Shown here: one piece after another, positions 40,483-41,650 of the stretch
Numbering within the stretch: position 1 is the stretch's first letter
Layout: each line of letters opens with the position of its first letter
Assembly (NCBI GenBank): GCA_903936705.1
Contig: CAIZWN010000005.1
Span: forward strand, 123,883-187,882
Source of the DNA: an uncultured Myxococcales bacterium
GTDB taxonomy: Bacteria; Myxococcota_A; UBA9042; DTJE01
DNA: 64,000 nucleotides
Direction of reading: 5' to 3'
The notes under the pieces: model-generated
Seen by the model: the letters and a program-made list of their open reading frames with translations, nothing else
Told to the model about the DNA's origin: nothing
The model's database searches: none
Translations under genes and position numbers: made by a program

Positions 40483-40607
40483 CTCGAAGGGCGCAGCCCC
40501 AGGTTGTTGTTGCGGTTGCCCGGGTCGTTGTTGTTGCGGTTCGCAGCCCGGGCGTTCCTGGCATCGTTGTTCCAGGAGCCGCCCCGATTCACCCGGTTAG
40601 AGCCCGT
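40483..40607 (-). repeat. DGR template repeat (TR), sense strand minus; overlaps the 3' end of the RT gene
   Basis: 125-bp match to 42638-42762 with 17 mismatches, all at TR adenines (T on the plus strand); TR translation is AAC/Asn-rich (NRVNRGGSWNNDARNARAANRNNNDPGNRNNN). Confidence 0.9.
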
Positions 40608-41650
40608 GTCGCCCCCGAACCACCTCCTTCGGTGCAAAACACCGATCTGCGAAGCGAGCCGGTGTCCGCATGCACCACGTGGCCCACCCGGCTCGCCATC
40701 GACCTCTCTAACGCTTCCGCGCTGATCCTCCCTTGTTCGTGGGCGTGCTGCTGGTCCCGGATGCCGCGCAGGAACCGTCGCTTTGACGCCCCGCTAAGGC
40801 GGACAGCCTGCGGCCAGATCCTGAACCCCAGGAATGGCACACCATCGAAGACCGGAGCAGCCAGCGTCGCAGCGGCCTTGACCTCCAGGCGCAAATCCCT
40901 GGCCGTCAGATCCCGGATCGCGCTCTCCCACTGCCACATTTCGGCACGGCCGTTACCGAACAGCAACAGATCATCCATGTATCGGATGTACCCGGTTACC
41001 CCCAGGGTCTCCTTCACAAAGTGGTCAAGCTGTGACAGGTAGAAGTTTGCAAAGTGCTGGCTGGTCAGGTTACCGATGGGAAGGCCCATGCCCGGCTGCG
41101 ATCCGGGAGCCCCGTGGTCCACGAACACGTCCACCAACCACAACACGCGAGGGTCCTTCACGACCCGCCGCACCATCGCCTTCAGGACTGCGTGGTCAAC
41201 CGTCTCGAAGAACCTCCGGATGTCCATCTTCAGGAAGTACGGCTGCTGCCGCGAAAACTCCCTTGCCCGCCTCAACGCCGCGTGCGACCCCTTTCCGCAT
41301 CGGCAGGCATAACTGTCGAAAATGGCGACCCTCTCGAACACCGGTTCCAGCACGGTACACAACGCGTGATGCACCACGCGATCCCGGATGTCGGCCGCCG
41401 AGATGGTTCGTGGTTTCGGGTCCGACACCGTAAACGTCCGGTACGGGCGCGGCCAGTATGACCCGTCAAGAAGTTCGCGCTGCAAGGCCAGGACCTCGGT
41501 CTCGAGGTCGAAGACCAGCCTGGCGCAAACCGGCTTGCCTCGGCGCCCCCGCACAGCCAGTCGGGCTGCCTCGCACAGCGCGCCGAAATCCACCACACTA
41601 TCGAACAAAAATCCCGTTCGCTTCATAACTGCGCTTGCTGCTTCAACCAA
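40589..41650 (-). CDS. DGR reverse transcriptase
   Basis: RT motifs 1-7 including DGR-diagnostic LPIGNLTSQ (41057-41077) and YMDD (40970-40981); about 350 aa with no endonuclease or maturase extension. Confidence 0.85.
   Translation of the reverse strand: MVEAASAVMKRTGFLFDSVVDFGALCEAARLAVRGRRGKPVCARLVFDLETEVLALQRELLDGSYWPRPYRTFTVSDPKPRTISAADIRDRVVHHALCTVLEPVFERVAIFDSYACRCGKGSHAALRRAREFSRQQPYFLKMDIRRFFETVDHAVLKAMVRRVVKDPRVLWLVDVFVDHGAPGSQPGMGLPIGNLTSQHFANFYLSQLDHFVKETLGVTGYIRYMDDLLLFGNGRAEMWQWESAIRDLTARDLRLEVKAAATLAAPVFDGVPFLGFRIWPQAVRLSGASKRRFLRGIRDQQHAHEQGRISAEALERSMASRVGHVVHADTGSLRRSVFCTEGGGSGATRALTG

Follow-up and report, generated by a model that had tools for sequence, protein, structure and literature searches.

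The question raised by this locus is whether a template repeat (TR) that starts inside the 3' end of a DGR reverse transcriptase (RT) gene is an oddity of one genome, an error in its sequence, or a normal arrangement in which the last codons of the gene also belong to the RNA that is reverse transcribed. The following features, identified in the window (the whole 64-kb stretch of DNA that was analysed, whose numbering is used throughout), define the problem:

42625-44778, minus strand: target gene (ORF), 717 aa, stop codon at 42627-42625
42632-42762, minus strand: VR, occupying the last ~46 target codons and followed by the final 7 nt of the target ORF
41957-42466, minus strand: HRDC-domain accessory gene between target and avd, 169 aa (PF00570, E=1.6e-16)
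41623-41966, minus strand: avd accessory gene (bAvd, PF22296, E=1.7e-16), stop codon UGA at 41625-41623
40589-41626, minus strand: DGR RT gene, 345 aa from the ATG at 41626 (PF00078, RVT_1), stop codon UGA at 40591-40589
40477-40607, minus strand: TR, delimited by repeat comparison with the VR
40589-40607, minus strand: overlap of RT ORF and TR, 19 nt, comprising the third base of Thr340, codons R341-A-L-T-G345 and the UGA stop

A search of the window for ORFs, Pfam domains and repeats thus yields a complete DGR in the order target-HRDC-avd-RT-TR-spacer, and the gene order given in the first-pass annotation is confirmed by both the ORFs and the domains. The target protein has a hydrophobic N-terminal segment, a Cys-rich region and a C-terminal domain of the FGE-sulfatase/C-type-lectin fold (PF03781, E=6e-44, residues 459-711 of 717). 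The start codon of avd (ATG at 41966) shares bases with the HRDC stop (the mechanical ORF reaches 42030), and an ATGA combines the end of avd with the RT start (the mechanical RT ORF begins at the TTG at 41650, giving the 353-aa numbering used in some comparisons below), such that HRDC, avd, RT and TR each abut or overlap the next with zero intergenic space. The RT matches the Bordetella phage bRT (8ub7_A) with a phmmer E-value of 1.4e-49, its close homologs are 345 aa long in most cases, and its nearest relative, at 66% identity, comes from a "Deltaproteobacteria" MAG, the present locus being from a GC-rich organism. The TR (40607-40477) and VR (42762-42632) form a 131-nt direct repeat with 85% identity (BLAST E about 1e-38), and 17 of the 19 mismatches fall on adenines of the TR, which has 32 in total (17 altered). 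The last of these A-type differences is at 40504; it is followed by a GC-rich block identical in both copies (CUGGGGCUGCGCCCUUCGAG) and then by two non-A differences at 40482 and 40479, which appear to mark an IMH*-like 3' end of the TR. No strong inverted repeat was found directly 3' of the VR at this locus; hairpins after the IMH are present in only 34% of DGRs (Wu et al. 2018, PMC5758913). Four hallmarks of a DGR are found together: an RT of the DGR lineage, an adenine-biased TR/VR pair, a VR at the 3' end of a target with the C-type-lectin/FGE fold, and an adjacent Avd. The best joint explanation of these and the following observations, including the RNA model developed below, is that the locus is an ordinary, apparently intact DGR of an HRDC-containing clade, to which we assign a probability of about 0.8.

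The overlap itself, proposed in the first-pass annotation, is real but shorter than the last ~9 RT codons (40589-40615) assigned to it there. Ungapped TR/VR identity begins at 40607, all five positions of 40612-40608 are mismatched and 40613, 40615 and 40616 are isolated matches, and the overlap is therefore limited to 40589-40607, with one base of the Thr codon, five full codons and the stop. A TR start at 40615 was rejected on these grounds, position 40607 also being the one that lies 1 nt past the long-range helix described below. The RT stop UGA arises from GUG-AAU, two codons of the TR, when these are read in frame +1, and is reached 19 nt inside the TR, whose start is 29 nt past the conserved RT core. 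Three TR adenines in or at the edge of the overlap (40598, 40589 and 40588) each have another base in the VR, including 40589, the A of the stop codon itself, which indicates that the overlapped stretch is a working template.

The protein side of the overlap is poorly conserved. The conserved RT core ends at Phe330 and is followed by a non-conserved tail of 15 residues; the mean fraction of the top residue is 0.67 for residues 1-330, 0.25 for residues 331-340 and 0.38 for residues 341-345, and the phmmer alignment to bRT covers only residues 10-333 in the 353-aa numbering (2-325 from the ATG at 41626). The RT ends before the TR, within it, or by read-through of it in any frame, depending on the relative: of the loci that share the RNA module, 34 have the stop before the TR, at least 21 have it inside and others have it farther on. 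In about 40% of the homolog clusters closest to this RT, the protein ends within the TR or past it (34/120 with the motif [RE]A.T[GA], while 13 read through). The tail thus looks dispensable as a protein, and since it is not conserved as such, any constraint on it would come from the RNA, whose requirements appear to set its sequence. The suggestion that the TR constrains the RT C-terminus therefore holds only nominally.

The implication that such a layout is unusual was not upheld, as the TR follows the RT directly in 76 of the 86 related loci with a TR/VR pair and overlaps the RT ORF in at least 21 of these 76, making this the rule in the RT clade. In most of the 55 loci in which it could be measured the TR starts 15-66 nt after codon 335 (353-aa numbering), 58 of the 82 related loci whose sequence extends 1500 nt or more upstream have an HRDC homolog 5' of the RT in the same orientation, and FGE-HRDC-(Avd)-RT-TR is the dominant order, found in 38 of the 69 loci with enough upstream sequence. 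Comparison with existing DGR catalogues, as had been proposed, likewise places the layout in known classes. A TR after the RT, the avd-RT-TR core order and the HRDC architecture have been catalogued under architectures A2, B2 and C (Wu 2018, PMC5758913), and the locus has both the HRDC gene in the cassette (42466-41957) that defines Architecture C and the single-strand core order avd, RT, TR of B2. It thereby resembles HRDC-containing DGRs such as that of Treponema denticola in combining HRDC and avd with a TR after the RT and an FGE/CLec target; the related loci include Treponemataceae contigs (L020, L057, L066 and L067), two of which, L066 and L067, have the RT and TR on opposite strands. 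Only 14 HRDC DGRs over 11 arrangements are listed in that study, and the locus is placed here by architecture. In DiGReF (Schillinger et al. 2012, PMC3521204), a TR after the RT constitutes group 2, which the locus resembles in this respect, and a TR overlapping the 3' (or 5') end of the RT ORF constitutes group 3, to which the 19-nt overlap corresponds. Nothing on the position of the TR relative to the RT was found in the PNAS 2024 and Nat Commun 2021 DGR surveys. The layout is normal for the clade and already known, and this is not a new kind of system. The conclusion of the DiGReF authors was that the spatial arrangement plays no role and that the RNAs are produced independently (PMC3521204), whereas here the sequence just upstream of the TR, in RT codons, seems to belong to the functional RNA.

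This last point depends on the RNA that extends beyond the TR, which, together with the end of the RT gene, contains the following elements in 5' to 3' order:

40609-40621, minus strand: upstream arm of a long-range helix, 5'-GGUUCGGGGGCGA, RT codons G336-T340, 1 nt before the TR
40433-40471, minus strand: conserved hairpin after the TR, outer pairs 40471-40469:40435-40433, stem 40463-40453:40450-40440
40420-40427, minus strand: Sp strand, of which CUUGA (40427-40423) pairs with UCGAG at the TR 3' end (40481-40477), followed by CCA
40407-40419, minus strand: downstream arm of the long-range helix, 5'-UUGCCCCCGAACC, spacer nt 58-70 after the TR end
40375-40402, minus strand: stem-loop CCGUCCC/GGGGCGG (40402-40396:40389-40383) followed by the A-rich run ACAAAGAG (40382-40375)
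40299-40369, minus strand: long terminal stem from folds (40369-40360:40320-40311, with an inner hairpin) followed by the U-rich tract CGUUUCUUUUCG (40310-40299)

Approximately 180 nt of conserved non-coding RNA follow the TR and end in the long stem and U-tract (40369-40299), a region in which CUGGUAG is conserved among relatives. In an unfitted MAFFT alignment 84.7% of cells pair for the structure as a whole, as against 61.5% when shuffled and at most 43% when slid, and 28 of 33 pairs change on both sides. For the individual elements, the hairpin (motif GCCAGA...GUUCAAGGA...C.GUGC) pairs in 91% of cells with 8/11 pairs changed on both sides (RNAalifold hairpin, covariation count), the helix of the TR 3' end with Sp (columns 201-205/284-288) in 85.5% with 4/5, and the stem-loop 40402-40383, which has the conserved consensus GGACAAAUA, in 93.5% with 5/5. 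A covariance model of the spacer (R1) has a single match in the window and finds 56 of 160 related loci; in the loci checked against RT and TR coordinates its matches sit just after the TR on the RT strand, the sole opposite-strand match being in L098.

The long-range helix (40621-40609:40419-40407) comprises 13 bp and is present in both the MFE and centroid folds of a 371-nt RNA (z=-3.7). Taken alone, its support against per-locus shuffles is modest in this GC-rich context (29/1000 by RNAduplex, 2/200 by helix score), and the case for it is therefore made by comparative data. Equivalent helices of different sequence are found at the same positions in relatives, albeit short or interrupted in some (e.g., L085, L007 and L001). 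Because MAFFT does not hold the variable arms in register, RNAalifold did not call the helix on the 392-column alignment, and it was tested instead through explicit column pairs and the scoring of cognate against non-cognate arms. Cognate arms outscored non-cognate ones in both tests (0/10000 permutations reaching the observed value over 68 loci; arm scores of 20.9 against 13.0, sd 3.0, and 0/20000 over 22 loci), and nine of nine column pairs have changes on both sides. The pairing of the RT tail codons just 5' of the TR with spacer nt 58-70, which is new here, is shown by covariation.

A structural precedent is provided by the DGR RNA of the Bordetella phage BPP-1, which consists of the avd 3' end, the TR and a 140-nt spacer and has been visualized in complex with bRT and Avd by cryo-EM (PDB 8ub7 series; Handa et al., bioRxiv 10.1101/2023.10.23.563531). 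Apart from the homologous RT (E=1.4e-49), the presence of Avd and the adenine-specific TR/VR differences, the two systems have the succession of RNA elements in common, with nearly equal spacings. Directly behind the TR comes a hairpin; the 3' end of the TR then pairs with spacer nucleotides in a duplex ending near nt 55-57; spacer nt 58-70 (in the phage nt 59-70, the Sp59-70 or cPRT Stop duplex) pair with a segment 5' of the TR; and a stem-loop with adenosines (A-minor in the phage cPRT Stop) and a long stem complete the series. Both the stop-type duplex (40621-40609:40419-40407) and, right after it, the stem-loop with ACAAAGAG are accordingly found at this locus. By analogy, the hairpin 40471-40433, located at the expected place, is a candidate Avd-binding stem-loop, A40420 (Sp57; A56 in the phage) is inferred as a candidate priming adenosine, and the terminal stem is, from its predicted fold, a candidate RT-binding stem and/or intrinsic terminator ending the DGR RNA. 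The differences concern mainly what surrounds the RNA. The gene order is avd-RT-TR instead of avd-TR-RT; the upstream duplex arm and the first 19 TR nt are RT coding sequence here, whereas in BPP-1 this place is taken by avd 3' codons; the spacer is a 3' trailer and not an intergenic region before the RT; and the locus has an HRDC gene and a target of the FGE-type fold, the BPP-1 target being Mtd. No sequence similarity between the spacer and that of BPP-1 was detectable, nor was there a match to Rfam RT-10. In the phage, compensatory changes that rebuilt the avd:Sp duplex failed to bring back activity (bioRxiv 10.1101/2023.10.23.563531), meaning that base pairing alone is insufficient there.

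Another known RNA, RT-15 (RF03018, among the RT-associated motifs of Weinberg et al. 2017), has a 5' hairpin (GCC.G, stem, uCAaG loop, stem, C.GUGC) that resembles 40471-40433. The match to its model, however, reached only 22.4 bits (E=0.039) against a gathering threshold of 82 bits, with 141 model positions deleted and only the 5' hairpin aligned, and no gathering-level match was obtained in 19 related loci. Membership of RT-15 or another Rfam family was rejected, as the gathering threshold was not reached.

As to how this RNA is made, the absence of intergenic space, the ~180 nt of conserved RNA with its stem and U-tract, and the genes beyond, which are convergent toward the RNA, indicate that the TR lies, most plausibly, in the 3' part of the RT transcript. 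The earlier idea that the TR RNA is the 3' end or UTR of the RT mRNA is in this way retained as an inference from gene layout and conservation. Simple scans, of which the promoter scan is weak for a GC-rich and probably non-enteric organism, found no sigma-70-like promoter or canonical terminator on the minus strand that would mark the start or end of a cassette transcript, the counts not exceeding those of shuffled sequence (1 vs 1.2 and 5 vs 5.0); the terminal stem 40369-40299 was not flagged because its loop exceeds 8 nt. The TR-spacer RNA would then be the 3' untranslated part of the RT transcript and, on analogy with the Bordetella phage, would be bound by RT-Avd. Synthesis of cDNA may be cis-primed from the spacer adenosine near 40420, with the TR copied with misincorporation at adenines, and would stop at the long-range helix, i.e., at the 5' edge of TR/VR homology, after which the cDNA would replace the VR.

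Three other readings have to be weighed against this one. An artefactual overlap, in which a frameshift or an error in the sequence has lengthened the RT ORF beyond a true stop upstream of the TR, could be argued from the poor conservation of the tail and from a reading frame that varies among close relatives, in three of which (L001, L081 and L082) the ORF crosses the TR in the frame of the VR. It is nevertheless highly improbable, since there is no in-frame stop from the conserved core to 40591, independently assembled relatives with 59% RT identity (L083 and L002) have an identical GGG-UGA stop in the TR, overlaps of 16-19 nt are also found in L085, L005 and L079, and 34 of 120 homolog clusters end in a TR-encoded R-A-x-T-G. 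A second, unrecognised TR between avd and RT, which the first-pass annotation had likewise considered as a way in which the layout might be misread, was ruled out by the ATGA junction and by a search of the 64-kb window, in which the TR matches only itself and the VR. Considerably less far-fetched, though still unlikely, is that the TR-spacer RNA, instead of being the tail of the RT mRNA, is transcribed from a promoter of its own within the 3' part of the RT gene. The DiGReF authors suggested that RT and TR RNAs are generally transcribed separately (PMC3521204), and in some DGRs, L066 and L067 among them, the two are on opposite strands; but the functional RNA needs RT codons 336-340 upstream of the TR, which would put the start site inside the RT coding region, all of the genes here are contiguous on one strand, and the scan, with the weakness stated above, found no sigma-70-like site on that strand.

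The remaining reading, to which we give slightly less credence again, assigns a regulatory role to the overlap. On reaching the end of the RT ORF, a ribosome would open the long-range helix and occupy the first nucleotides of the TR, so that one RNA molecule could be either translated or reverse transcribed, and newly made RT would be released onto its own template (cis-preference), a coupling that we consider equally doubtful. The geometry fits, with a stop codon 16-18 nt into the TR and an upstream helix arm formed by codons 336-340, as does the share of homolog clusters (about 40%) that end in or beyond the TR; against this, the position of termination is not conserved, falling before, inside or after the TR in any frame, and the similarly placed avd codons of the phage have not been reported to be coupled in such a way. 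If true, this would be a bacterial counterpart of the cis-preference of retrotransposons and would account for the tight RT-TR junction (15-66 nt in most loci) across the clade. The ordinary DGR with a TR in the 3' part of the RT transcript remains the preferred explanation.

The ordinary-DGR reading has a practical consequence for annotation: as the ORFs of this RT clade often enter or cross the TR, they give rise to RT proteins with spurious C-terminal "SUMF1/FGE" domains (e.g., P0023 and P0112), and such RT gene ends should not be counted as protein features. It also provides a concrete 350-nt candidate for the DGR RNA (about 40650-40299). For the family as a whole, it would extend the cryo-EM-based model of the phage RNA to the avd-RT-TR/HRDC clade, in which the upstream arm of the stop duplex may be supplied by whichever gene happens to precede the TR.

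A complete diversity-generating retroelement (DGR) lies on the minus strand from 44778 to about 40299, with the following genes.

Genes of the DGR cassette
44778-42625, minus strand: target protein, 717 aa, with a C-terminal FGE-sulfatase/C-type-lectin-fold domain (PF03781, E=6e-44)
42466-41957, minus strand: HRDC-domain gene (PF00570), next after the target
ending at 41623, minus strand: Avd gene (PF22296), after the HRDC gene
last gene of the cassette, after Avd, minus strand: reverse transcriptase (RT; PF00078)

The RT is clearly homologous to bRT, the RT of Bordetella phage BPP-1 (8ub7_A; E=1.4e-49, residues 10-333 of the 353-aa mechanical ORF), and from the ATG in an ATGA overlap with the avd stop (41626-41623) it is 345 aa long, which is also the modal length among its closest homologues. 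The HRDC stop is likewise overlapped by the likely avd start, and therefore no intergenic space is left among HRDC, avd and RT. In the surroundings, a PEGA/TPR protein (46025-44775) directly upstream overlaps the target start by 4 nt, Ser/Thr protein kinase-like ORFs recognised by eye lie a few kb either side of the cassette (35335-36882 (+) and 46040-47770 (-)), and a Phd/YefM antitoxin (PF02604) and PIN toxin (PF01850) pair (39525-40222 (+), overlapping each other by 4 nt) converges on the DGR from the opposite strand, ending at 40222, 77 nt from the U-tract after the DGR spacer.

A direct repeat of 131 nt was found at 40607-40477 and 42762-42632. In minus-strand orientation, 17 of the 19 mismatches between the two copies fall on adenines of the 40607-40477 copy, which identifies this copy as the template repeat (TR) and the other, forming the last ~46 codons of the target, as the variable repeat (VR); the two non-adenine mismatches (40482, 40479) are at the extreme 3' end of the repeat. 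No further TR matches occur in the 64-kb window. An FGE/CLec-like coding segment at 50793-51026 (+) shares 35% identity with the C-terminal part of the target, but as it has no nucleotide match to the TR it was ruled out as a second VR. A GC-rich hairpin spotted by eye in the target-HRDC gap (CCCGCCC-GAAG-GGCGGG, 42505-42530 (-)), ~100 nt downstream of the VR, was rejected as a classical IMH-flanking hairpin, being too distant from it. Several related loci (L017, L015, L069, L068, L007) pair one TR with two or three VRs, which are carried by separate target genes and in some cases lie as far as about 5.7 kb away; in the window there is a single VR.

The first-pass annotation held that the RT ORF ends inside the start of the TR, and this is borne out, with the UGA stop (40591-40589) lying within the TR. 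The overlap had been drawn from 40615; ungapped identity begins at 40607, all five preceding positions being mismatched, and with the RT stop ending at 40589 the overlap is therefore 19 nt, beginning with the final base of the Thr340 codon and running through R-A-L-T-G to the end of the UGA. This stretch serves as template; TR adenines 40598, 40589 (the A of the stop codon itself) and 40588 are all changed in the VR.

The arrangement had also been contrasted with the common DGR layout, in which the TR sits between avd and the RT gene, but it is not unusual. When 160 loci encoding RT relatives, from genomes and metagenomes, were each scanned for adenine-biased repeat pairs, 86 had such a pair, and in 76 of these the TR immediately followed the RT in the same orientation; TRs upstream of the RT were confined to remoter relatives (≤39% identity). 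In most of the 55 measurable loci the TR starts 15-66 nt past the codon aligned to residue 335 (353-aa numbering; the LRRS motif, taken as the reference for TR distance), its onset being 0-78 nt after the RT stop in 34 of the 55 and within the RT ORF in at least 21 loci, with several RT ORFs reading through the whole TR. A TR-encoded C-terminal peptide, [RE]-A-x-T-[GA], is present in 34 of the best 120 RT homologue clusters, while 13 others run on across the TR, using any of the three frames. The commonest order in the clade is FGE target, HRDC, (Avd), RT, TR (38 of the 69 loci with enough upstream sequence). Published classes already include RT-TR and avd-RT-TR as core orders A2 and B2, together with Architecture C, which contains HRDC and has Treponema as its example (Wu et al. 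2018, PMC5758913), as well as TRs downstream of the RT (group 2) or overlapping the 5' or 3' end of its ORF (group 3; Schillinger et al. 2012, PMC3521204). Homologues P0023 and P0112, and the related loci L001/L081/L082 (about 1190-1354), read the whole TR in the VR frame. Some TR-reading homologues have a PF03781 match and the NCBI name 'SUMF1/EgtB/PvdO family nonheme iron enzyme'; read-through in the VR frame gives the 'RT' protein a false C-terminal FGE-sulfatase match, and the naming is an annotation artefact of the layout.

That the TR constrains the RT C-terminus is true only nominally. The bRT alignment stops at residue 333 (325 in the 345-aa numbering), and in an alignment with 120 homologues the mean frequency of the commonest residue drops from 0.67 at positions 1-330 to 0.25 at 331-340 and 0.38 at 341-345, with 34-51% gaps across 339-345. 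In the closest relative (L001/L081/L082, 66% identity) the tail contains indels and the TR is read in the frame of the VR. The conserved ending 'R-A-x-T-G*' is the +1-frame reading of the conserved TR start (A)CGGGCUCNAACCGGGUGA, which in its own frame specifies T-G-S-N-R-V, a scaffold motif of the target. The tail, poorly conserved and with its ending thus explained, is best regarded as a dispensable extension, with RNA requirements dictating its sequence.

These requirements would include a long-range helix between RT codons and the spacer, the RNA following the TR, one of five helices supported by RNAalifold and explicit pair counting.

Predicted RNA elements (minus strand)
40621-40609: upstream arm of the long-range helix, 5'-GGUUCGGGGGCGA, RT codons 336-340, ending 1 nt before the TR
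40419-40407: downstream arm, 5'-UUGCCCCCGAACC, 58-70 nt past the TR end, complementary to the upstream arm over 13 bp
40481-40477 with 40427-40423: 5-bp duplex of TR 3' end and spacer, then CCA (RNAalifold, pair counting)
40463-40440, outer pairs 40471-40469 with 40435-40433: hairpin just 3' of the TR (RNAalifold, pair counting)
40402-40383: stem-loop, then ACAAAGAG (RNAalifold, pair counting)
40369-40360 with 40320-40311: long stem, then CGUUUCUUUUCG (40310-40299; RNA folds)

The long-range helix is present in both the MFE and centroid structures of the entire 371-nt RNA including the TR (z=-3.7), and relatives form helices at the same two positions from quite different sequences (for example GGUCCGGUGGC/GCCGCCGGACC, GGGUUGAAGCG/CGCUUCAAUCC, GUAAUGACUG/CAGUCAUUAC, GAGUGGCC/GGCCACUU). 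Cognate arms score above non-cognate ones across 68 loci (observed mean reached in 0 of 10000 permutations), and likewise where conserved anchors delimit the arms (22 loci; cognate mean 20.9 versus 13.0, sd 3.0; 0 of 20000 permutations), the cognate arm being the best partner in 12 of the 22. In an alignment not fitted to the helix, 9/9 pairs had changed on both sides. For all helices together, 84.7% of cells pair, compared with 61.5% in shuffles and ≤43% with partners slid, and both-sided changes occur in 28 of 33 pairs.

A MAFFT alignment of 22 loci gave the conserved spacer motif GCCAGA...GUUCAAGGA...C.GUGC together with UG(A/U)CCAG, CC(U/C)G, GGACAAAUA and CUGGUAG. R1, the spacer covariance model built here, matched 56 of the 160 loci, exactly once in the window (40492-40352, 89 bits), and, wherever it was compared with RT and TR coordinates, immediately 3' of the TR in the orientation of the RT. 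The sole match on the strand opposite the RT, in related locus L098 (2623-2757 (-), 34.8 bits), may represent a TR-spacer module in inverted orientation, comparable to L066 and L067, whose TRs lie on the opposite strand. Membership in Rfam RT-15 is not established, as its match covers the first post-TR hairpin only (40421-40474 (-)) at 22 bits (E=0.039) against a gathering score of 82, and none of the 19 related loci scanned reached the gathering score of any family. As one of the orphan motifs found near RTs (Weinberg 2017), RT-15 may correspond to the spacer RNA in a related clade of DGRs.

The phage TR needs two flanking sequences, the final ~20 nt of avd and a 140-nt spacer (Sp). Immediately 5' of the TR, avd369-379 forms the 'cPRT Stop' duplex with Sp59-70, after which come a short stem-loop and unpaired adenosines; Sp A56 serves as the priming site, adjoining the duplex of TR 3' end and spacer, with an Avd-binding stem-loop at Sp5-32 and a long RT-binding stem at Sp95-139 (bioRxiv 10.1101/2023.10.23.563531). 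The predicted stem at 40369-40311 with CGUUUCUUUUCG might correspond to the RT-binding stem, act as an intrinsic terminator, or do both. To the identified components, with their adenine-specific TR/VR pattern, clade-wide RT-TR-spacer module and covarying helices, the phage mechanism may be applied by analogy: RT and Avd would assemble on RNA spanning about 40650-40299, cDNA synthesis would start by cis-priming at an adenosine of the spacer near 40420, the TR would be copied with misincorporation at adenines, synthesis would halt at the long-range helix, and the cDNA would then replace the VR. The helix edge (40609) matches the 5' boundary of the homology between TR and VR (40607).

The template RNA is probably the 3' part of an HRDC-avd-RT transcript; that the TR has a promoter of its own within the RT gene appears unlikely. 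A regulatory role for the stop inside the TR, making translation and reverse transcription mutually exclusive or giving cis-preference, is also unlikely; the case for it is weakened by relatives that share the RNA module, since their RT stops may precede the TR, fall inside it or lie past it. That the overlap is an assembly artefact is very unlikely, because independent relatives have an identical stop position.

The overlap of TR and RT end is thus real, with a corrected boundary, typical of the clade and already catalogued. What is added here is that the upstream arm of the putative stop duplex comes from the 3' codons of the RT itself; in the window, codons 336-340 would take the part that the 3' end of avd plays in the phage.
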